Positions 28,453-63,071 of a DNA stretch of 64,000 nt are shown piece by piece (the first letter of the stretch is position 1; each line of letters begins with the position of its first letter). Under the pieces are notes generated by a model. The model was given only the letters and a program-made list of their open reading frames with translations. It searched no databases and was not told the origin of the DNA. Where the stretch lies: the IMG/VR virus record IMGVR_UViG_3300049436_000052, positions 270,327 through 334,326 of that record. One strand, given 5' to 3'. The position numbers were made by a program, and so were the translations under genes. This stretch comes from a virus.

Positions 28453-29637
28453 TTAATGTGATTTAAAGTTATACAAGGGTTTTAATGTGTCTATAATGTC
28501 AACTGTATCAACAATCATAGATTTTATTTCTTCAATAGATTTATATGCTTGAGGCGCTTCATCTAAGGTTTCTTTAACAACAGATGTACTATAAATTCCT
28601 TTCATCGAACCAATGAAATCATCCATTTTAATATTTTCTTTAGCCTTACTTCTACTAAATAATCTTCCAGCACCATGAGGAGCAGAATAATTCCAATCTT
28701 CATTACCCTTTCCAACACATAACAAAGAACCATCTCTCATATTAATTGGAATTAATAAAATTTCGTTTTTTTCGGCACTCACTGCACCTTTTCTTAAAAT
28801 CATTCGATTTAAATCAATATAATTGTGAATTGTTTCAAATTTTTCATCTATTATCCAACTCATTTCACTAATAATGATCTTGGCCATTGTTTCTCGATTA
28901 AGACTTGCAAATTTTTGAAGAACTGCCATATCATTCATATAATCATTGAAATCGTCTCCTGATAAATATGCAAGTTCTTTATCAGTAACAGGTTTTTTTA
29001 ACTTTTTCAATTCTTCATTAATTTCCCTTTCTCTACCATTTTTTCTTAATTCTTTAATGAGATTTTGCTTAACTTTTGACATTTCGTTAACATTTTGAAA
29101 TGCTTTGTCTTGATAATATTTACACATGTCGCCACCCAATTTTCTACTACCTGAGTGAATTATAAGATAAATATAATCGTAATTATCTGACTTTGAGACC
29201 TCTATGAAGTGATTGCCTCCACCGAGACTACCAATTGACAATATTGCTCTTTCTAAATCAACATGTTTTGCACATCTCAGGTTAGAAAAATCAAACTTAG
29301 CTTGTGAATTTTTATGAATGTTGAATCCATGAGGAACTTTTGTTTTGATAATGCGATCAAGTTTTTCGAAATTAATTTCCTGATTTTTTATTATAACTGT
29401 AAGCATTCCACAACTTACGTCTACCCCTACTAGGTTTGGAGTTATTTTATCTGTAATTGTCATAGTAGTTCCAACAGTACAACCCTTACCTAAATGAGAA
29501 TCTGGCATTATTCTAATTTTTGCATCTTGATATGCTTCAAAATTAGCCATTCTTTTCACTTGTTCATATGTTTCATAATCAAAAGTTTCAGCAAAAACCT
29601 TTGTTTCAACGCCTTTAACATTTTTTATTATCTGCAT
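28453..29637 (-). CDS. rtcB: RNA ligase RtcB
   Basis: MPDSHLGKG, VGVDVSCG, SLGGGNHFIE, HSGSR, HNY, RKGA, SAPHGAGR, DEAPQAYK. Confidence 0.95.
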   Translation of the reverse strand: MQIIKNVKGVETKVFAETFDYETYEQVKRMANFEAYQDAKIRIMPDSHLGKGCTVGTTMTITDKITPNLVGVDVSCGMLTVIIKNQEINFEKLDRIIKTKVPHGFNIHKNSQAKFDFSNLRCAKHVDLERAILSIGSLGGGNHFIEVSKSDNYDYIYLIIHSGSRKLGGDMCKYYQDKAFQNVNEMSKVKQNLIKELRKNGREREINEELKKLKKPVTDKELAYLSGDDFNDYMNDMAVLQKFASLNRETMAKIIISEMSWIIDEKFETIHNYIDLNRMILRKGAVSAEKNEILLIPINMRDGSLLCVGKGNEDWNYSAPHGAGRLFSRSKAKENIKMDDFIGSMKGIYSTSVVKETLDEAPQAYKSIEEIKSMIVDTVDIIDTLKPLYNFKSH

Positions 29638-32797: not shown

Positions 32798-33508
32798 TCA
32801 TTTTTTTCTATTTCTGGATGAATTTTTATTCCTTGCTCTAAAATTAATTGTCATTGAATGACAATTAGGACATAAAATTTCTAAATTATTTATATTACAA
32901 TTTTTAGCATCGCCATCAATATGATTAATTTCAGTTAAACTTTTTCCATCAATAGGATGTTTTTCATCCCACCCACATTTACTACATTTAGAACCTCTAA
33001 TCTCTTTTAAATATTTTCTAATAATAGTTTTTAATTGTATTGCCTTTCCATGCCATCCAACAGTTTCACCATTTAACCATCTTTCTATTGCATTTTTTTT
33101 AATACTAATATAAGTACATGTTTTAGAACAGTATATATTTTGTTTTTTTATTAGACGTTTTCCACAAATAAGACAAAATTCGTTTAATCTTTTTCTTTTA
33201 TTTTTTTTCACATAATTCACATTATTATATTTTGCAGAACAAGAATGTGAACAAAACAAATTAATCGACCCATTATGCTTAATATCATTTGCTTTTCGTT
33301 TAAACAATTTTCCACATGTTTTACAAGTACATTCACAAATTTTAACTGAAATGTCATTAATGTCTTTATATTTTAATCCAAGACTATATAATTTTAATTT
33401 AACAGATTTGCTTGTCCTATTTAAAATTTCGCCAATTTCGTTATATTTTTTATGTTTGTTAAATAATTCTATCAATAAATTCAATTCATCTTTATCCCAT
33501 TTTTTCAT
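32798..33508 (-). CDS. HNH homing endonuclease inserted in a tRNA cluster
   Basis: CSKCG, EINHIDGD..N....NLEILCPNCH; zinc-binding CxxC / FCS..C repeats. Confidence 0.85.
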   Translation of the reverse strand: MKKWDKDELNLLIELFNKHKKYNEIGEILNRTSKSVKLKLYSLGLKYKDINDISVKICECTCKTCGKLFKRKANDIKHNGSINLFCSHSCSAKYNNVNYVKKNKRKRLNEFCLICGKRLIKKQNIYCSKTCTYISIKKNAIERWLNGETVGWHGKAIQLKTIIRKYLKEIRGSKCSKCGWDEKHPIDGKSLTEINHIDGDAKNCNINNLEILCPNCHSMTINFRARNKNSSRNRKK

Positions 33509-33574: not shown

Positions 33575-33647
33575 AGGAGACATCTGGTAATGATCCAGAA
33601 TACATAGATCTTCAATCTGTTATATAAACCATCTTTGCCATATCTTC
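33575..33647 (-). tRNA. tRNA-Phe(GAA), degenerate
   Basis: Loop TTGAAGA and T arm TCTGG-ATCATTA-CCAGA; mismatches in acceptor, D and anticodon stems. Confidence 0.6.
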
Positions 33648-33865: not shown

Positions 33866-33898
33866 AAAAAAACCCGATTCATTTCTGGATCGGGTTGT
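33866..33898 (-). terminator. Attenuator terminator upstream of the 8-tRNA cluster
   Basis: AACCCGATCC-AGAAAT-GAATCGGGTT then TTTTT. Confidence 0.85.
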
Positions 33899-33929
33899 AG
33901 GAATAATGATTATCTATTCTTCTTTTTGC

Positions 33930-34058
33930 TTATATCATTATATATAACAACCCAATACCTATGTCAATACTATTTCTACGGAAGAAACATGACATAAAAT
34001 TTCCATTGCGATTTATTCTCGATATGGACGTTTGAGTTATTGTTATAATAGATTTCAT
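33930..34058 (-). CDS. Leader peptide MKSIITITQTSISRINRNGNFMSCFFRRNSIDIGIGLLYIMI (attenuator of the Cys/Ile/Phe/Asn/Met/Arg/Ser tRNA cluster)
   Basis: Hand translation; 20 of residues 11-31 match the cluster's amino acids; ATTGGGTTGT pairs with the terminator 5' arm. Confidence 0.85.
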   Translation of the reverse strand: MKSIITITQTSISRINRNGNFMSCFFRRNSIDIGIGLLYIMI

Positions 34059-44083: not shown

Positions 44084-47000
44084 TTAGAAATGTATCTCAC
44101 ACGAATTTCCGTTACATGCGATAGCACCAGTTGAATCAATATCAGTATATTTAGGTTTAACGTTTAACTGTTTCCAATCAATATCTTTTATATCTCTATT
44201 AATCTCAATAAATTTATGGTAGTTGTTTACATCTTTCAAACAGTATGTCATTTCTTTTATTGAATTAAAATATCTATCAGAAAATTGTTTTGCTCTTCTA
44301 AGCCAATCTTTTTTCAACGGATAATTATGTAATGTAGAAATCAATTTACTATCTAAATATCTTTTATATTCCTCTAACTCTGGTTTAATGTTTAATTCAC
44401 TTAATTGTTTTAATGTTCCATTTTTAAATCCCAAATTTTTCCATAAAATTTCAGGTGTAGTATTTTTTATTTTTTCGTTAACTTCAATATCTGAATATTC
44501 CAATTTTTCGCCTAATCCTAAAACAGTATCACAAGCCATCCACAAGTTATTATTAAAAGCATTCAATCCATCAACGATCAAACCTGATGCAAATAAAACT
44601 GCATCCCCATATTTTCTCACAAGTTCTTCAGGTGAAGGTATTGCAGTAAAAGGTGCTTGGTTATAATCTTTATCTCCAGTCATTGGTAATAAACTAATTC
44701 CAGCAAATGTTTGTTTATTATCATAAATATAATTTTCCACAGCATCCCAATCATCTACAATAATAGTATTACTTACATTATGACGTATACTAGGATCAGT
44801 ACATAATTCAACATTTGTCCCATATTCAACCCAATTTTCTTGTGTTGTTTTAACATATTTTAGCAATTTAATCCCCATTAATTCATCTTTTAATATACTA
44901 TTTTTGGGGGTTGTTATTGGAAATGATATAACCCAATCGTTATTATTTGCAGACCAAACCGATTTTTCGACCATTTTAGGGTTAACTTCCACAAAATATT
45001 TGGCAATATCGTCTTCAACATTCACCTGAACATTTCTTATATATTGTTCAGAATGTTCACCATGTATCCCTGACGCACTTTTTAATAAAACGGAAGAATT
45101 TCCCGATGGTTTCACACATGTTGTACGAGCAGCTTGATTAATTCCAATCATTTGGGCAACTTCTTTATTTATTTCTTTAACAATTATTGCACCTTTTCTT
45201 TGAATTTCAGGATTTAGTAATATTTGTGGATTATTCATAAAACCAGTTATAGAAACCCCTAACAATGCTTCTCTGTCAAATATTTGTTTAGTAATTTCGT
45301 CAACATACTTAAAGTCAGTGTATGCTGCTTGCATTGTTCCCATAATTGCCCCAGCCTTACACGCCCCATAAAATTCTTCTTCTGTATTACATTTACTCCC
45401 ATTAATTTCACACAAGTTACATCCAATAGATCCTGATCTTCCATCTTCTGTTTTGGGTGAAAATCCAATCTCGAAACAATTTGAAACATTACAACCTTGA
45501 GTCCAATAAGTATGTGATTTATTATCAACAGTAATATCATATACTTCCTCTTCAGAAATAAAAGATTTGTTTATAATTTGTTTTGAAATATTTTCAGAAT
45601 TTAATTTACACCATTTTTTTAGATGAATTTCTAATTTTTCATTTTTATAGTTTTGTAAAAATCCGATATATTCATAAAACAAATCAACATCTTTAGATAT
45701 ATTTAAATCATAACTTTCTTTACAAATATATTCACCATTTGAAAATTTTGTTTTAGTTGATTTATTTGTTGTATAATAAGATGCAATTCCTATTGAATTT
45801 AACATTAATTGAACATCTTCTATTAAATTAAATGATGTTGATTTTAATGTTACACGTCTTCCAACAAAACTACCATTAGCACTATATAACCCTCTTAAAA
45901 ATGAACATATTATAGATATATCACCCTTTAAGAATCTTTCAGGTATTTTTCTTTCAAATGTTTTATTTAGTTCATCATACTTAATTGAAGTAATTATTTC
46001 ATATTGATATTCACCAACACCGTCTCTTTTTTTCAAGATAAGATTTTTTATTTCACTATCAAAATAATCAAAATCGTTTTTACCTATACATAATAATACT
46101 AAATTATTTGATGCTTTATGAACAGTTCCATCACCAATTACTAGTCCATCCATAATAATATTATTATCAAATATTGGTTTATTTACCATAATACCTCTTA
46201 ATAATTCTATATTTTCGGCTAAATCTATTTCAATTTTTTCATTATTATTTACTATTCTATGATTTTCTGTACCATAAAATGAATTAAATGTTGTTCCATA
46301 TCTATAAACCTTTTTTATTCCCGTTGACCATTTATTTGTTATTTTCGTCCAACCTTCTGAACTCCATATTTCATCACCAATATTAATATCTTTTAATTCT
46401 TTAATACCTTTTGGTGTTAATAATTTGGCCCATGCAGGTTGACAAGGGTTAAAAATATTATCCTCATTTTCCGTAAATCCAAAACCAGGTTCTCCATATT
46501 CTTTAGTTGATTGGAAAAATTTATGAAACTCTTCTTTTGTTAAATTATTTTTATTTAATAAGACACTATTATTAGATCTTGCTCGTTGTGGATTTTCAAT
46601 AAACCAATTTCCTGTTTTAGCTTTCATCATTTTCTCGTCATTGGGACTAAATAGACATACAGAAGCCGAACGCCTTAATCCTCCAGAGATAACAGCATCA
46701 CTCATATGCATGACAATATCATAAGCTAATATTGGTTCAACAACCCCATTAAAATTAGCTTTATCTAGTTCTTTTTCTAAAAGATCTTCTATTTTTTGAA
46801 TTGCATTTCGTAGTCCATCAGAACCTGGAGCTTTAAAGCCACCACTAATCATACTTCCTTTAGGCCTTATTTCACTATAATCAAAATGAATACAACAATT
46901 TTGAAATTTTGGAAAAGTAACATCACCATCAAAATAAGAAGATAGAAGTATTCCAATCGCATCTGCCCAGCCTTCAATACTATCCTCTATAATATGGGTT

Positions 47001-47446
47001 TTTGAACGATTTGATCTTTGTTTAATTTTGGGAAGTTTTTCAATATGTTTGTTTTGAACTGAAAATCCAACACCACAACCACATAAAAGCCAATACATAC
47101 AATCTTGAAAAAATCTTACTCTATCACAATACATTCCAATACAATTATAAATTTTAGCATTGTGTTTAAGTATTGGAGCACCACCGAATTGTAAACCTCT
47201 TTGTGAACCTAATACATATTTTTCTTTGTATTTTTTTCTTGCAAATTCATAATATTCTTTAAATTGTGGATTATTTTCCAATATTTCTTTAAATTTAATT
47301 TGGTGCATTTGATCAAAAACTCTATCAACACTTTCTTCCCAAGTTTCGTATCGTCCCAATTCTTCATTGTATTTACTATAACTTGAATAAAATTTAAAAT
47401 TTGATAACAGATCATGACCTAAGTCATTGAATTTCATTTTCTTCAT
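44084..47446 (-). CDS. nrdJ: Ribonucleotide reductase catalytic subunit (NrdJ/class II-like) with intein
   Basis: GCGVGFS, GGLRRSA, GEPG, NP|CFEI, CNLCE, TTCVKPSG, C-terminal CNGNSC; class assignment tentative. Confidence 0.8.
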   Translation of the reverse strand: MKKMKFNDLGHDLLSNFKFYSSYSKYNEELGRYETWEESVDRVFDQMHQIKFKEILENNPQFKEYYEFARKKYKEKYVLGSQRGLQFGGAPILKHNAKIYNCIGMYCDRVRFFQDCMYWLLCGCGVGFSVQNKHIEKLPKIKQRSNRSKTHIIEDSIEGWADAIGILLSSYFDGDVTFPKFQNCCIHFDYSEIRPKGSMISGGFKAPGSDGLRNAIQKIEDLLEKELDKANFNGVVEPILAYDIVMHMSDAVISGGLRRSASVCLFSPNDEKMMKAKTGNWFIENPQRARSNNSVLLNKNNLTKEEFHKFFQSTKEYGEPGFGFTENEDNIFNPCQPAWAKLLTPKGIKELKDINIGDEIWSSEGWTKITNKWSTGIKKVYRYGTTFNSFYGTENHRIVNNNEKIEIDLAENIELLRGIMVNKPIFDNNIIMDGLVIGDGTVHKASNNLVLLCIGKNDFDYFDSEIKNLILKKRDGVGEYQYEIITSIKYDELNKTFERKIPERFLKGDISIICSFLRGLYSANGSFVGRRVTLKSTSFNLIEDVQLMLNSIGIASYYTTNKSTKTKFSNGEYICKESYDLNISKDVDLFYEYIGFLQNYKNEKLEIHLKKWCKLNSENISKQIINKSFISEEEVYDITVDNKSHTYWTQGCNVSNCFEIGFSPKTEDGRSGSIGCNLCEINGSKCNTEEEFYGACKAGAIMGTMQAAYTDFKYVDEITKQIFDREALLGVSITGFMNNPQILLNPEIQRKGAIIVKEINKEVAQMIGINQAARTTCVKPSGNSSVLLKSASGIHGEHSEQYIRNVQVNVEDDIAKYFVEVNPKMVEKSVWSANNNDWVISFPITTPKNSILKDELMGIKLLKYVKTTQENWVEYGTNVELCTDPSIRHNVSNTIIVDDWDAVENYIYDNKQTFAGISLLPMTGDKDYNQAPFTAIPSPEELVRKYGDAVLFASGLIVDGLNAFNNNLWMACDTVLGLGEKLEYSDIEVNEKIKNTTPEILWKNLGFKNGTLKQLSELNIKPELEEYKRYLDSKLISTLHNYPLKKDWLRRAKQFSDRYFNSIKEMTYCLKDVNNYHKFIEINRDIKDIDWKQLNVKPKYTDIDSTGAIACNGNSCEIHF
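45479..46444 (-). mobile_element. Intein (322 aa) with LAGLIDADG endonuclease, inserted before the RNR catalytic Cys
   Basis: NP|CQPAWAKLLTP...GLVIGDG...FLRGLYSANG...VYDITV...VSN|CFEI. Confidence 0.88.
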
Positions 47447-47964
47447 AACAGATTTTTGTCTAGTTTAAAATTATTTTTGTAAAATTTTGTGATGGGATTT
47501 TTATTTTCATAAAGAGTAAAAAATAACTTTAATAAATAGTGCAAAAATAAACATCTTTGTGAGATTTTTAACATTTGTTAAGAAAATATTTTTCAACAAA
47601 TTTATTCTGTTGTTTGTTAGATTTTTATGAAAAAAAAATTAATAAAAAGATGGTTAAGAAATGATAATAATTAGATTTTATTCAATCATCGTTTCTATAA
47701 AACTTGTCAAATCTGGTAATTGTGCCACTCGGTTTTTCTTCTATTTTTTCATTGTTTTCAAATGAATCCAATGAAGTGGTAGTGTTTTTCTTAAATATTT
47801 CAAAAAGTAATTGTAGGGGGGTAATTATTTGATAGTTATATGATTCAGAATCATCATAGGTTATTATTGTTTTTTTGGCCATGAAAAAGAAATTTTTATA
47901 TCCTATTATTTTCTTGCAAAGATATGAAAAATATGGAAGAAAAACAAAATAATATAAAATTTAG

Positions 47965-48046
47965 TTGTGGTGGTAGGAATCAAACCTACATAGCTGAAAG
48001 CGAAGCATTTACAGTGCTCTGATTTAGTCAATTTACCATCACCACA
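47965..48046 (-). tRNA. tRNA-Tyr(GUA)
   Basis: TGTGGTG/CACCACA, GAGCA-CTGTAAA-TGCTT, long variable arm. Confidence 0.85.
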
Positions 48047-48054
48047 ATATATTG

Positions 48055-48125
48055 TGCCCCCACTTGGTTACGATCCAAGTTCTACAATTTAAAAGATTGT
48101 AGCTCTACCATTGAGCTATAGAGGC
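48055..48125 (-). tRNA. tRNA-Lys(UUU)
   Basis: GCCTCTA/TGGGGGC, ACAAT-CTTTTAA-ATTGT. Confidence 0.9.
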
Positions 48126-48137
48126 ATTTATAAAAAC

Positions 48138-48171
48138 AAAAAAACCCGAAACTTATTCAGAATCGGGTTTT
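48138..48171 (-). terminator. Attenuator terminator upstream of tRNA-Lys/Tyr
   Basis: AAAACCCGA...TCGGGTTTTTTT. Confidence 0.8.
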
Positions 48172-48198
48172 AACTTAATAACCTAAAATTTAAAATTT

Positions 48199-48282
48199 TT
48201 AGCACATAACTTTCCCAATTCTTACTAAGATTTGTTTCTTATAAGATTTTGAGTAATAATATGTGCTGCTTGTCAAAAACAT
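48199..48282 (-). CDS. Leader peptide MFLTSSTYYYSKSYKKQILVRIGKVMC (attenuator of the Lys/Tyr tRNA cluster)
   Basis: Hand translation; YYYSKSYKK run; AGAATTGGG pairs with terminator arm CCCGATTCT; TATCTTTG at 48313-48320. Confidence 0.87.
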   Translation of the reverse strand: MFLTSSTYYYSKSYKKQILVRIGKVMC

Positions 48283-48670
48283 TTTTTAATATGATAAAAT
48301 TTAAAGTAATTACAAAGATAACAATAAATAGTTATTTTTCCAAAAAAATTTCGTTAAAAGTTGTTAATAAACTATTTTATTTTTTAGCTTCTCTATCATT
48401 GTCTTCATCTTCAAGTTCTTCTAGCGTTTCGAGATTATCTTGATAATATCCAGCCAGAGCATTTAAACTAAAATCTTCAACAAATGAAATATTTTCGGTA
48501 TTTGTTATTTGTTTTTTTATTTCATTTATTTTTACTTTTAATACAGACATTAAACTTTTTCTAGGTTCACCCATGATTTTTCGTTTTAAATAAAATTATA
48601 AAAAAAACTACTATTAACTATAAATACTACGGTAAATAGGGATTAGACGGATTTGTTGAAATAAATATTT

Positions 48671-49750
48671 TTAAAAGCCTATTTTCTTTTTTCCATTATC
48701 AAACGACATTTCACTTGTATTATAGATATCTGCTAATGTGAATGAATCAACAACTTCAACTTTTAGTTTTTCTGCTAATTTTCTTGCACGATCATTTGAT
48801 AATTTTTTAAACTCATATTGAGCAATTAATCTACCTTTTCTCAATAATGCCTTATCAATATTAAGTATTGATGTGTTAAATGTTGCGACAATTTGAATAT
48901 TTAAACAATCTGATAATAATCCATCTGTTAAATTTAGTAGATTTGAAATTGCTTGTGATGAATATCCGCTTCTTTTCATTAGAATATTTTCAGCATCTTC
49001 AATAACCAGAATTGAATTTGAAACATCAACAAGAAATTTAATTAAGTGTGGTGATGAAATGGAATCTGTCATATTTGGTGGAAGATAGATAACATTTTTA
49101 TTTAATTTATTAATTAAATGTCTAATATATGTTGTTTTCCCTGTCCCTGGTTCACCATATAGTAAAACCAAACCTTTTGAGTTATCTTTTGAAAGTTTGT
49201 TTACGATTAATTCATTCACTTCTTCAAAATCTTCATTATAATTTAACGAAAAGTCGATTGTTGGTGGTTGAATTTCTTTTTGAAGTAAACTAAATCCATT
49301 CAAACTTGATACTAACAGGTTTATATATTTATTATTATTTTGATCTATTTTATAATTGTTTATTTCATTGACTAAGTTTTCTAGGGATTTGGTTTTAATT
49401 GAAAAATAAAGTTTGATCGCAATTCTACCATCGCAATAATCCTCAACAGCTTTTACATAAACTACATTATTAGGTTCATTAAAACAAAAAAGAATTATAT
49501 GATAGTATTTGTCAACAATTTCCTTTTTATCATAGTAATATTCTGATGTTGTTACAATATTATCTTTATATTTTTCAATAAATGCATTAATTATTTCTCT
49601 ATCAAACATATATTCGAACCCAATACAATTTGGAATTTTCTTAAATTTATCCCAAATCAAATTTTTTATTGGATAGTTACTATCATCATCAACAGATCCA
49701 AAATAATTATGTGTTAATTCATTTCTTTTTTTACTGGTCGATTCTTCCAT
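48671..49750 (-). CDS. AAA+ ATPase
   Basis: GEPGTGKT, LVIEDAE, LLNLTDG, IDKALLRKGR. Confidence 0.88.
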   Translation of the reverse strand: MEESTSKKRNELTHNYFGSVDDDSNYPIKNLIWDKFKKIPNCIGFEYMFDREIINAFIEKYKDNIVTTSEYYYDKKEIVDKYYHIILFCFNEPNNVVYVKAVEDYCDGRIAIKLYFSIKTKSLENLVNEINNYKIDQNNNKYINLLVSSLNGFSLLQKEIQPPTIDFSLNYNEDFEEVNELIVNKLSKDNSKGLVLLYGEPGTGKTTYIRHLINKLNKNVIYLPPNMTDSISSPHLIKFLVDVSNSILVIEDAENILMKRSGYSSQAISNLLNLTDGLLSDCLNIQIVATFNTSILNIDKALLRKGRLIAQYEFKKLSNDRARKLAEKLKVEVVDSFTLADIYNTSEMSFDNGKKKIGF

Positions 49751-58902: not shown

Positions 58903-58934
58903 AAAAAACCCCAACAAATTCATGTCGGGGTTTT
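58903..58934 (-). terminator. Attenuator terminator upstream of tRNA-Leu/Asp/Glu
   Basis: AAAACCCCGACA-TGAATT-TGTTGGGGTTTTTT. Confidence 0.85.
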
Positions 58935-58961
58935 AGATAAAATTATACAATAATTATATAT

Positions 58962-59054
58962 TTATTTCCCGACAAAACATAACAATTCCTCATCAGCAGC
59001 CCATAGAAGAGTATCTGCTAAAGATAAAGTCAATATGTCGAGTAAATTTTTCAT
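58962..59054 (-). CDS. Leader peptide MKNLLDILTLSLADTLLWAADEELLCFVGK (attenuator of the Leu/Asp/Glu tRNA cluster)
   Basis: Hand translation; 9 Leu, 3 Asp and 2 Glu of 30 residues; TGTCGGG pairs with terminator arm CCCGACA. Confidence 0.82.
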   Translation of the reverse strand: MKNLLDILTLSLADTLLWAADEELLCFVGK

Positions 59055-59248
59055 GTTAAACTGTTGTTCCTACCATTTTCATAAAAAGTAATTTTAATTT
59101 TTTCATAAATACTTTGTTTTTTCAAAAACTTCCCCAAATCATAAGAAATGAGGAAGTTTTTTTTAAAAATAACCTTATAATTAAAACTTTCAAAATGAAA
59201 AGCAAAGATAGATATATTTTCTTAATCTACCAAATATTTTAACATTAT

Positions 59249-60142: not shown

Positions 60143-60174
60143 ATATAAATAATCTTAAATTATTTGATTATCAG

Positions 60175-60246
60175 TCGAGCGTGCCGAAATCGAATCGTTC
60201 CTGAATGTTCCAGACATCCCATGCTAACCATCACACCCCACACTCG
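60175..60246 (-). tRNA. tRNA-Pro(UGG), 8-bp acceptor stem
   Basis: CGAGTGTG/CACGCTCG, GGATG-TCTGGAA-CATTC. Confidence 0.78.
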
Positions 60247-60261
60247 AAAAATTTATAAAAT

Positions 60262-60298
60262 AAAAAACCCCATTCAATTTTTATCTTGAATGGGGTTT
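60262..60298 (-). terminator. Attenuator terminator upstream of tRNA-Pro/His/Gln
   Basis: AAACCCCATTCAA-GATAAAAA-TTGAATGGGGTTTTTT. Confidence 0.88.
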
Positions 60299-60321
60299 GT
60301 GATAAAACCTAAAATCATTTT

Positions 60322-60405
60322 TTAAACATAGATTTCCCATTCAACATTTTGTGGATGTTGTGGTTGGGGATGCTGAACGCACAATATGTTTAAAACATTT
60401 TTCAT
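60322..60405 (-). CDS. Leader peptide MKNVLNILCVQHPQPQHPQNVEWEIYV (attenuator of the Pro/His/Gln tRNA cluster)
   Basis: Hand translation; 9 consecutive Q/H/P codons; TTGAATGGG pairs with terminator arm CCCATTCAA; TAAATTTG at 60423-60430. Confidence 0.9.
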   Translation of the reverse strand: MKNVLNILCVQHPQPQHPQNVEWEIYV

Positions 60406-61260: not shown

Positions 61261-62496
61261 TTAAATTAAACTTAATTTTATTGGCTGTAACACACAACCT
61301 CTACAAACTAAATTATTGAAATAATTTTCATTTGCTACATTTATTTTTCTTAACATCCCCAAAGAACCATTTATATCTGCGTTTAGTGTAATTCCTGTTG
61401 ATGATCTAAATAAACCTCTTTTAATTCTTCTTCCTAAATATTTTTTAGAATATTTCATTTCTTCATTTGATAGGTGATCAGATTTTGAAGTATAACTTTC
61501 TTCAGTTAATAAAACTTCTATTCCTACTTCTTCTGCCTTATATTTAATCATGTTAATTAAATTATCAAATGGAATGTTAACAAAATTCTGATTATTTTTC
61601 TTATTTAAATTACATTCTTGTTTCCAATTATCATTTTTACCAATAACAATTTTTCCAACATCATGTTTAATACATAATTCTATTAACCATTTACTTGCTT
61701 TATGTAGATAATCATCTATTTTATTTTTTCTTTTTAATGTAATTCTATTTAATTTTTTTGAAAAGTTTTTGTTATTAACAATTTTAATAACCGATTTTTC
61801 TTTGGAAATTAATTTATTATAATATTGATTTATAGTTTTTAATGGTCTACCGTTAACCAAATATGATAATGGTTTTTCTTGGTTTGATGTTATAGCCAAT
61901 AAATTATTCACACCCAAATCAATCCCTATTACATTATTTTTATTTAATTTTAATTCTTTAATGTCTTTTTCATATACAATTTCTATTTTAATCTTATTAT
62001 TTTTTGGTACTAATCTAATTTCTTTTAGTTTGTTTTTTGTTATTTTTGAATTAATGCTGTAATCTGATTTTGGTATTTTAATTTTGTTTTCTTTATTGTA
62101 AGATAAATTTTGTTTAGGAAAAATACAAACAAAATATCCTTTCTTATCCAAGTATTTTGGAAGACTTGGTTTACCTAAATATTTATTTGGATTTTTTACA
62201 TAATCTTTTATAGATCTAAAGAAACTTAACCAATTTCTATCTAATAATTTTAATACTTGTTGAGATGTCTGTGCTGGTAAATCTTTATAGGTTTCATGGG
62301 ATTTAACTAAATTATATAATTCATGATATCTAATCCAATTAGCGTATTCAACTAAGCCTTGTTCTTTTTCTTTAGAAGATTTAATAAATTCTTGTCTAAT
62401 TATATAATTAGAATAATTATAAAGATTTTTTGCTTTATGACAAAAATCAAAAAGTATTTTATCAGATTTAATATGTGATTCTATTCTGGTTGGCAT
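61261..62496 (-). CDS. tnpB: TnpB of an IS607-family element
   Basis: KNLYN, GIDLG..N, DYLHKAS, ESYTSK, NADING. Confidence 0.88.
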   Translation of the reverse strand: MPTRIESHIKSDKILFDFCHKAKNLYNYSNYIIRQEFIKSSKEKEQGLVEYANWIRYHELYNLVKSHETYKDLPAQTSQQVLKLLDRNWLSFFRSIKDYVKNPNKYLGKPSLPKYLDKKGYFVCIFPKQNLSYNKENKIKIPKSDYSINSKITKNKLKEIRLVPKNNKIKIEIVYEKDIKELKLNKNNVIGIDLGVNNLLAITSNQEKPLSYLVNGRPLKTINQYYNKLISKEKSVIKIVNNKNFSKKLNRITLKRKNKIDDYLHKASKWLIELCIKHDVGKIVIGKNDNWKQECNLNKKNNQNFVNIPFDNLINMIKYKAEEVGIEVLLTEESYTSKSDHLSNEEMKYSKKYLGRRIKRGLFRSSTGITLNADINGSLGMLRKINVANENYFNNLVCRGCVLQPIKLSLI

Positions 62497-63071
62497 AATT
62501 CTTCAACAAGGTTTTTTCTTTTATTTGAATATAATTTCATTGAATATGAATGTAATAAAGTAACGATTTCTTCAAAAATTTCTTCTGAATCTAATTTAGG
62601 ATTTCCTATTTCACTAATAACTTCAATATTTGTTCCATATTTTTCGAATAATACTTTAAACAATTCAAATCCAATCCTAGATAATCTATCTTTATATGTT
62701 ATGATAATTCTTTCAATTTTTCCATCAATAACATCATTAATTAAATTAAAAAGTTCTTTTCTATTTTCAAAATTAATACCTGAAGCAATATCATATTTGA
62801 TTTCATTAATAGAATAACCTTTATTAAAACACCATTGTTTTAATAAATTAATTTGATTTTCAAGATCTTTTTTTTGTTTTATTATGGATACTCTTGCATA
62901 TATTATAGTTTTTCTATTCATTTCTTTATTTAAGAAATCATAAATAGATTTATCATCATAAGAATATCTACCATTAGGTAGTGTAGTTGTTTTTACATAT
63001 CCCAATTTAACATATTTGGTTAGTGTTGGTCTACTTATTTTCAATAAATTCAGGACATCATTTGCCTTCAT
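62481..63071 (-). CDS. tnpA: IS607-family serine recombinase transposase
   Basis: N-terminal HTH, IYARVS, DIASG, KDRLSR; overlaps tnpB. Confidence 0.9.
   Translation of the reverse strand: MKANDVLNLLKISRPTLTKYVKLGYVKTTTLPNGRYSYDDKSIYDFLNKEMNRKTIIYARVSIIKQKKDLENQINLLKQWCFNKGYSINEIKYDIASGINFENRKELFNLINDVIDGKIERIIITYKDRLSRIGFELFKVLFEKYGTNIEVISEIGNPKLDSEEIFEEIVTLLHSYSMKLYSNKRKNLVEELCQPE

Follow-up and report, generated by a model that had tools for sequence, protein, structure and literature searches.

A predicted leader-peptide attenuator before the lysine and tyrosine tRNA genes of a giant phage, and similar units at other phage tRNA blocks

Why phages carry genes for transfer RNAs (tRNAs) is a long-standing question, for which two answers are current: codon compensation, and escape from defence systems that cleave tRNAs. 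The stretch of DNA analysed here (hereafter the window: 64,000 nucleotides (nt), the final 64 kb of the 334,326-bp virus record IMGVR_UViG_3300049436_000052, positions 270,327 to 334,326; the record has 25.3% G+C) raises this question in a specific form: what is the role of a short open reading frame (ORF) that is rich in lysine (Lys) and tyrosine (Tyr) codons and is followed by a tRNA gene for each of these two amino acids? We term this arrangement the Lys/Tyr unit. All of its parts lie on the minus strand, in the order promoter, first AUG, ORF, terminator and tRNA genes. A first-pass annotation, made from the sequence alone, had called it an attenuator that may serve as an inducible counter-defence. 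Our analysis indicates that the unit is probably a ribosome-mediated leader-peptide attenuator exerting negative feedback on tRNA supply. The attenuator part of the earlier proposal is well supported in silico by three lines of evidence: a four-region RNA switch in the leader, sister units in the same window, and leaders in related phages that track the tRNA content of their operons.

The leader is found where the first-pass annotation had placed it (48282-48199, minus strand), along with the codon run that it had pointed out: codons 8-16 spell Tyr-Tyr-Tyr-Ser-Lys-Ser-Tyr-Lys-Lys, such that seven of these nine are Tyr or Lys codons. When the 1367 short ORFs of the genome are compared, 0.15% contain a nine-codon segment with at least seven Lys or Tyr codons. 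The two tRNAs encoded downstream, tRNA-Lys(UUU) and tRNA-Tyr(GUA), which had also been noted earlier, together read all the Tyr and Lys codons of this run (Table 1). The former is recovered by both ARAGORN and Rfam. ARAGORN gave no call for the latter at 48046-47965; its identification comes from an Rfam match and from a minimum-energy fold that is a complete class II cloverleaf, with an unusual D-loop and T-loop. The gene 3' of tRNA-Tyr has, as judged by eye, a promoter-like box of its own; if this is so, the operon consists of the two tRNAs alone.

The leader ATG is the first AUG downstream of the predicted transcription start, and a full promoter of the Bacteroidota type is situated between the upstream 65-codon gene and the leader. 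A pattern derived from the coordinates of the Lys/Tyr unit (the -33 element, 20 nt and the -7 box) occurs 40 times in the genome as against 12-23 times in shuffled genomes. The full pattern occurs 17 times on the minus strand, and three of the four leader AUGs of the window have it 30, 17 or 148 nt before them. A scan for sigma-70 promoters was uninformative, with 10 sites against 9.3 expected. The U-run of the terminator ends so close to tRNA-Lys (4 nt) that there is no space for a separate promoter between them.

The RNA of this leader displays the classical four-region layout of the trp type, including a hairpin between regions 1 and 2 (1:2) that the first-pass annotation had missed. Region 1 includes leader codons 6-16, thus every Tyr and Lys codon of the run, and pairs with region 2 in a hairpin of -20.2 kcal/mol (48267-48201), which sequesters the antiterminator strand (48222-48214). 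Regions 3 and 4 constitute the terminator hairpin (48171-48141, -13.7 kcal/mol), which is followed by the U-run; a simple terminator scanner failed to call it, probably due to its 13-nt loop, which exceeds the 8-nt limit of the scanner. The alternative 2:3 helix is formed by 48222-48214 with 48167-48159, and comprises 9 bp, one of them G-U, with a duplex energy of -11.2 to -12.6 kcal/mol; among the three helices, 2:3 is placed at -11 to -14 kcal/mol. This pairing of the strand with the terminator arm was likewise part of the first-pass annotation, and it withstands comparison with 1000 shuffled leaders: the complementarity amounts to -12.6 kcal/mol versus -5.3 +/- 1.9 (P=0.001). The helices 1:2, 2:3 and 3:4 exclude one another, and the fold of the whole leader has a z-score of -3.25.

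We modelled the switch by folding a transcript cut before region 4 under a 28-nt ribosome mask. The score was the probability with which bases lying far upstream hold the G+C core in the 5' arm of the terminator. This probability was 0.03 with no ribosome, 0.04 with a ribosome at the stop codon, 0.7-1.0 with the A site at any of codons 3-16 and 0-0.1 with the A site farther downstream. In these folds the antiterminator forms only for stalls at codons 3-16, and the regulatory codons 8-16 occupy the 3' part of this permissive stretch. As far as such folding can model it, this is how a trp-type attenuator should behave, down to the termination seen for an untranslated leader.

Based on these features we propose the following course of events. 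Host RNA polymerase would start at the Bacteroidota-type promoter and transcribe the 27-codon leader. With the Tyr and Lys codons being read at normal speed, the ribosome would proceed as far as the ORF's end, leaving region 2 either covered by it or folded onto region 1, and the terminator (3:4) would form, ending transcription 4 nt before tRNA-Lys. Upon a shortage of charged tRNA-Lys or tRNA-Tyr, the ribosome would stall at codons 8-16 and keep region 1 open; region 2 would then pair with region 3, no terminator would form and the polymerase would enter the genes for tRNA-Lys and tRNA-Tyr. The fresh tRNAs would relieve the stall, resulting in a feedback loop that fits tRNA supply to decoding demand. 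Without translation, the 1:2 hairpin would form and lead to termination. What the analysis shows is the anatomy of the sequence, its energetics, and the matching of codons along with its recurrence; that the leader is translated, that ribosome and polymerase are coupled and that the switch operates, we infer. The triggers of such a switch would include the demand of an AT-rich phage, loss of host tRNAs during infection, and cleavage of tRNAs by defence nucleases.

The window offers an internal comparison. It has 13 tRNA genes called by ARAGORN, all on the minus strand, and each of its four tRNA blocks is preceded by a leader that spells the amino acids of its own tRNAs. The leader before tRNA-His and tRNA-Gln has nine Gln, His or Pro codons in a row; in that before tRNA-Leu, tRNA-Asp and tRNA-Glu, 14 of 29 codons are for Leu, Asp or Glu; and in the longest (34058-33930), 26 of 41 codons are for Cys, Ile, Asn, Met, Arg or Ser, with the tRNAs behind it being tRNA-Cys, Ile, Asn, Met, Arg, Arg and Ser, in a block that is interrupted by an endonuclease gene. 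The true assignment of the four leaders to their tRNAs ranks first among the 24 permutations. The antiterminator complementarity is also significant in the three sister units when compared to shuffled leaders (P<=0.002, 0.009 and 0.010). Even the choice between codon boxes can be followed in the leader before tRNA-Arg(ACG) and tRNA-Arg(UCU), which has two CGY and two AGA codons, in a genome where CGN makes up 20% of Arg codons. That the His/Gln, Leu/Asp/Glu and Cys/Ile/Asn/Met/Arg/Ser blocks have the same predicted control points to a general control of tRNA supply, not one specific to Lys and Tyr.

Beyond this phage, homologues of the neighbouring AAA ATPase with 45-53% identity led to other giant-phage records. 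An automatic scan, in which a terminator had to be closely preceded by the end of a short ORF and followed by tRNAs, recovered 12 further units in six related records. Across the resulting 16 units, the excess of matches between leaders and tRNA sets is 91.9 versus 0 +/- 15 under permutation, a value reached by none of 200,000 permutations (p<=5e-6). Of the 117 cases in which a tRNA identity is present in the operon, 114 have a codon for it in the leader, and the other three are all Met; with the tRNA absent from the operon, the leader has such a codon in 119 of 203 (odds ratio 27). Among Leu, Arg and Ser codons, the codon box used follows the anticodon that is present (29/30 versus 9/16, p=0.0014), which favours tRNA sensing over a function of the peptide. 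Orthologous leaders also acquire codons for Gln, Asp, Thr, Ala or Val where the corresponding tRNAs have been added to the operon. Antiterminator complementarity has a combined p=2e-11 in the 16 units, and region 2 is in every unit a near copy of region 4 that changes together with region 3. Its register differs between units, and it always lies a few codons before the leader stop. Taken jointly, the density of cognate codons, an alternative pairing correctly placed with respect to the stop codon, a dedicated promoter, and the recurrence of the unit at every tRNA block of the window and in other phages are beyond chance.

Table 1. Features of the Lys/Tyr unit and its sister units; positions are those of the window
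Feature	Position	Strand	Remarks
Promoter -33 element, Bacteroidota type	48341..48344	-	read from the sequence
Promoter -7 box, TAnnTTTG type	48313..48320	-	ends 30 nt before the leader ATG
Leader ORF, 27 sense codons and stop	48199..48282	-	ATG at 48282, stop at 48201-48199
Region 1, 5' arm of the 1:2 hairpin	48237..48267	-	minimum-energy pairs; overlaps the Tyr/Lys codons
Regulatory codons 8-16	48235..48261	-	four Tyr (three TAT, one TAC) and three Lys (two AAA, one AAG)
Region 2, 3' arm of the 1:2 hairpin	48201..48230	-	includes antiterminator strand 48222-48214
Region 3, terminator 5' arm and four loop bases	48159..48171	-	alternative partners: region 2 or region 4
Region 4, terminator 3' arm	48141..48149	-	terminator -13.7 kcal/mol
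U-run of the terminator	48129..48140	-	ends 4 nt before tRNA-Lys
tRNA-Lys (anticodon UUU)	48054..48125	-	ARAGORN; Rfam RF00005, 58.8 bits
tRNA-Tyr (anticodon GUA), class II, long variable arm	47965..48046	-	Rfam 31.4 bits, cut-off 29
His/Gln unit	60265..60405	-	leader 60405-60322; terminator 60298-60265; before tRNA-His and tRNA-Gln
Leu/Asp/Glu unit	58905..59054	-	leader 59054-58962; terminator 58934-58905; before tRNA-Leu, tRNA-Asp and tRNA-Glu
Cys/Ile/Asn/Met/Arg/Ser unit	33871..34058	-	leader 34058-33930; terminator 33896-33871

Some units of the window show signs of common descent. Over the 3' half, the Lys/Tyr unit (48126-48240, minus strand) is a paralogue of the His/Gln unit (60252-60352, minus strand), and the His/Gln and Leu/Asp/Glu leaders (60405 and 59054) both open with Met-Lys-Asn-x-Leu-x-Ile-Leu, a start also seen in leaders of the related phages L211, L215 and L214; together these suggest that in the evolution of the leaders copies are made and their codon run is then rewritten. 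The Leu/Asp/Glu unit is the one with the promoter 148 nt before the leader: in the stretch ahead of the leader (59056-59220, minus strand), a further terminator-like hairpin (about 59172-59128) lies between the two, and a 16-codon ORF (59106-59056) ends 1 nt before the leader AUG. Between the His/Gln terminator and tRNA-His is a structured element (60172-60250, minus strand) with a 9-bp acceptor-like stem and UGG in a hairpin loop. We considered it as a tRNA-Pro, and it was set aside upon yielding neither an ARAGORN or Rfam call nor a cloverleaf fold; given the three Pro codons in the preceding leader, it may be a decayed or aberrant tRNA-Pro.

Several further elements adjoin or interrupt these blocks. 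The large tRNA block contains, between tRNA-Ile and tRNA-Asn, an ORF of 236 amino acids (32798-33508, minus strand) with Myb-like and weak HNH endonuclease matches, which looks like a homing-endonuclease insertion in the tRNA operon. After tRNA-Ile there is a weak tRNA-like match (33575-33647, minus strand; Rfam 21.6 bits, below cut-off) that yields no cloverleaf on folding. The His/Gln leader has an IS607-like element (61261-63071, minus strand) about 0.85 kb upstream of it, in which a TnpB-like gene (OrfB_IS605 and Cas12f-like TNB domain, 411 amino acids) overlaps a serine resolvase gene (196 amino acids). Beyond the window there is a single tRNA gene (220339-220417 of the record, minus strand), which encodes a 79-nt tRNA-Gly whose anticodon, ACC, is unusual; it is located directly after a protein gene and a hairpin, and has no leader ORF.

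The wider searches brought no usable orthologue of the Lys/Tyr unit. A blastn comparison with a phage collection returned distant NrdD matches and no match for the unit; a search of IMG/VR with the neighbouring AAA ATPase and NrdD returned one distant match, L001; and a search of metagenome contigs with NrdD returned one fragment. When IMG/VR was scanned for the Tyr/Lys codon run in the form of a degenerate DNA pattern, 118 mostly random matches came up, with none adjoining a Lys or Tyr tRNA. The contexts of six AAA homologues show poor synteny, with tRNAs present in L002 only. An ORF of 1120 amino acids in the window (44084-47446, minus strand) has distant blastn matches to genes bearing the annotation ribonucleoside-triphosphate reductase and a weak match to the ribonucleotide-reductase alpha domain, below the Pfam cut-off; it features a central LAGLIDADG homing-endonuclease domain, likely an intein. 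In L001, an adjacent Tyr-Lys tRNA pair is found just upstream of the homologous NrdD gene, without a leader. The related 336-kb phage L208 (88000-94000) has four tRNAs with structured, G+C-richer spacers of 200-400 nt between them and a promoter directly before the first tRNA, again with no leader.

Against the attenuator reading a number of points have to be set. When the full-length transcript is folded at equilibrium with the ribosome masks applied, the terminator always wins; any switch therefore has to be kinetic, and would require the ribosome to keep pace with the polymerase. No close relative of the phage was found in the phage collection by blastn, or in the IMG/VR or metagenome contig searches. 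The Lys/Tyr unit hence cannot be aligned with orthologues, and for covariation one has to turn to paralogues and to analogous units. The related units are themselves partly homologous, so that the permutation p-values overstate their independence. Some related phages, namely L001 and L208, have tRNA genes but no leader. For Leu and Ser in the window, most leader codons belong to boxes read by no phage tRNA. A sensor that responds to charged tRNA would also be induced by amino-acid starvation, without benefit. Finally, the bare layout is widespread in this AT-rich genome, a short ORF being found before 44 of its 97 terminator-like sites. The signal thus comes from the matching codons together with the alternative pairing, the promoter and the adjacency of tRNAs, and not from the layout.

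Granting the attenuator, it is conceivable, though in our estimate rather unlikely, that it acts mainly as an inducible counter-defence: a host anticodon nuclease destroying tRNA-Lys or tRNA-Tyr would cause the stall and thereby the supply of phage copies, which are possibly resistant to the nuclease. This is a special case of the attenuator reading, not a separate mechanism. Both tRNAs are documented nuclease targets in Escherichia coli systems: PrrC cleaves tRNA-Lys (PMC10264068), AriB of PARIS cleaves tRNA-Lys with phage T5's tRNA-Lys rescuing the phage (PMC11464382), and PtuAB of Retron-Eco7 (Ec78) degrades tRNA-Tyr (PMC12673091; bioRxiv 10.1101/2023.03.15.532788). The targets named in the first-pass annotation accordingly stand for E. 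coli systems only. The phage encodes Lys(UUU) and Tyr(GUA), which are isoacceptors of the targets documented in E. coli (PMC11464382; PMC12673091). The counter-defence proposal also draws on the small operon and sensor that Lys and Tyr have to themselves, and on the presence of RtcB (28453-29637), an RNA ligase able to reseal cleaved tRNAs.

Located on the minus strand, the RtcB ORF follows downstream of the large tRNA block at a distance of about 2.7 kb and matches the RNA 3'-phosphate ligase family (Pfam PF01139, 156 bits); in the related contig L002, RtcB adjoins the AAA ATPase and tRNA arrays. Its presence would fit tRNA damage as a selective pressure, and is not proof of it. As against this, all other tRNA blocks have the same predicted control; Lys and Tyr are found in separate, large operons in the five related phages that were studied in full; and AAA and TAT are among the most used codons in this genome of 25% GC (88% of Lys and 90% of Tyr codons, respectively), whereby plain demand explains the unit equally well. 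We infer the step from attenuator to inducible counter-defence. In its general form, which we offer only tentatively, the tRNA blocks of Bacteroidota giant phages would be self-regulating circuits, each transcribed only upon stalls at its cognate codons; a nuclease attack would automatically induce the replacements, and the Lys/Tyr unit would be a sensor-coupled inducible counter-defence.

We consider it improbable that there is no attenuator at all. On such a reading, the ORF and hairpin would represent either some unrelated small gene or simply the terminator belonging to the upstream 65-codon gene; expression of the tRNAs would be constitutive, by read-through or from a start in the U-run, and the Tyr and Lys codons would be there by chance. 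The commonness of short ORFs before terminator-like sites is in keeping with this, as is the composition of the genome: Lys and Tyr make up 14.7% of its codons, and their binomial enrichment over the whole leader reaches only p=0.028. However, it has to contend with the full promoter between the upstream gene and the leader, the gap of only 4 nt between U-run and tRNA, the match of leaders to their own tRNAs at all four blocks of the window and in the 12 units elsewhere, and an antiterminator complementarity that is significant in each window unit. Least credible of all is direct sensing of the T-box kind, whereby uncharged tRNA would pair with codon-like triplets and stabilise the antiterminator without translation: T-boxes do regulate translation-related genes via a choice between terminator and antiterminator, and the leader has runs of triplets cognate to the downstream tRNAs, but no T-box or other riboswitch family matches 47500-48800 even at E<=1, in every unit the triplets are in frame within an ORF that has an AUG and a stop of its own, a single specifier is not compatible with leaders that spell 10-14 different amino acids, and the constant placement of region 2 shortly before the stop is what a ribosome-occlusion model needs.

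If the attenuator reading is true, the phage would gauge the decoding speed of specific codons and respond with the matching tRNAs, a capability that serves both of the current answers to why phages carry tRNA genes, and one reporter could then put both to the test. The reach of leader-peptide attenuation would go beyond amino-acid metabolism and include the tRNA pool, where the product would act directly back upon the sensor that governs it. From the leaders one could read, by sequence alone, which tRNAs share one transcription unit, and such short, modular units could act as sensors for the availability of chosen tRNAs.

Comparison with known systems places the Lys/Tyr unit between two bodies of work. 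The first concerns phage T5, whose tRNA-Lys and tRNA-Tyr counter PARIS and Retron-Eco7, respectively; the specificities Lys(UUU) and Tyr(GUA) are encoded here too, and in the available text of the T5 reports no leader peptide or attenuator is described (PMC11464382; PMC10264068; bioRxiv 10.1101/2023.03.15.532788). Among cellular tRNA genes, E. coli pheV resembles the phage unit in that a host-type promoter drives a tRNA gene with a terminator after it, and differs from it in that the promoter immediately precedes the tRNA, neither a leader ORF nor an attenuator being present. An attenuator-like leader was considered for the E. coli tRNA-Phe genes and discarded, pheV having none and a literature search finding nothing. 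More generally, a full-text literature search, from whose coverage most subscription journals are absent, returned no description of leader-peptide control of tRNA genes; such control was found described only for amino-acid genes.

The second body of work concerns the regulation of translation and amino-acid biosynthesis in cellular bacteria. The T-box riboswitches of aminoacyl-tRNA synthetase genes in Firmicutes share with the phage unit a terminator/antiterminator choice made by the state of a specific tRNA and a position upstream of genes related to translation. However, the T-box binds uncharged tRNA directly, with no ribosome needed, whereas the sensor of the phage unit is an ORF. Closer in mechanism is the pheM leader of E. 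coli pheST, which encodes phenylalanyl-tRNA synthetase: this attenuator reads codons of its own amino acid. It controls a synthetase protein, whereas the phage units would control RNA adaptors, and do so for two or more specificities at once. The proteobacterial amino-acid attenuators trpL, hisL, pheL, leuL, thrL and ilvL have in common with the Lys/Tyr unit a promoter-proximal short ORF with a run of regulatory codons, the alternative helices 1:2, 2:3 and 3:4, and an intrinsic terminator that immediately precedes the genes under control; the default, for the phage unit as predicted, is termination when the leader is either fully translated or untranslated. Those sister units that have 6 to 14 amino acids are reminiscent of the leaders of thr and ilv, which are multivalent. 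Unlike the enterobacterial leaders, the Lys/Tyr unit is phage-borne, has a Bacteroidota-type promoter, and its leader bears no sequence relation to theirs. Unlike all these attenuators, it would control neither biosynthetic enzymes nor a synthetase but tRNA genes, so that the sensed molecule would be the product itself and the feedback on tRNA supply direct. In every structural feature that can be assessed from sequence the Lys/Tyr unit agrees with the trpL/hisL class, and what sets it apart is the genes that it would control.

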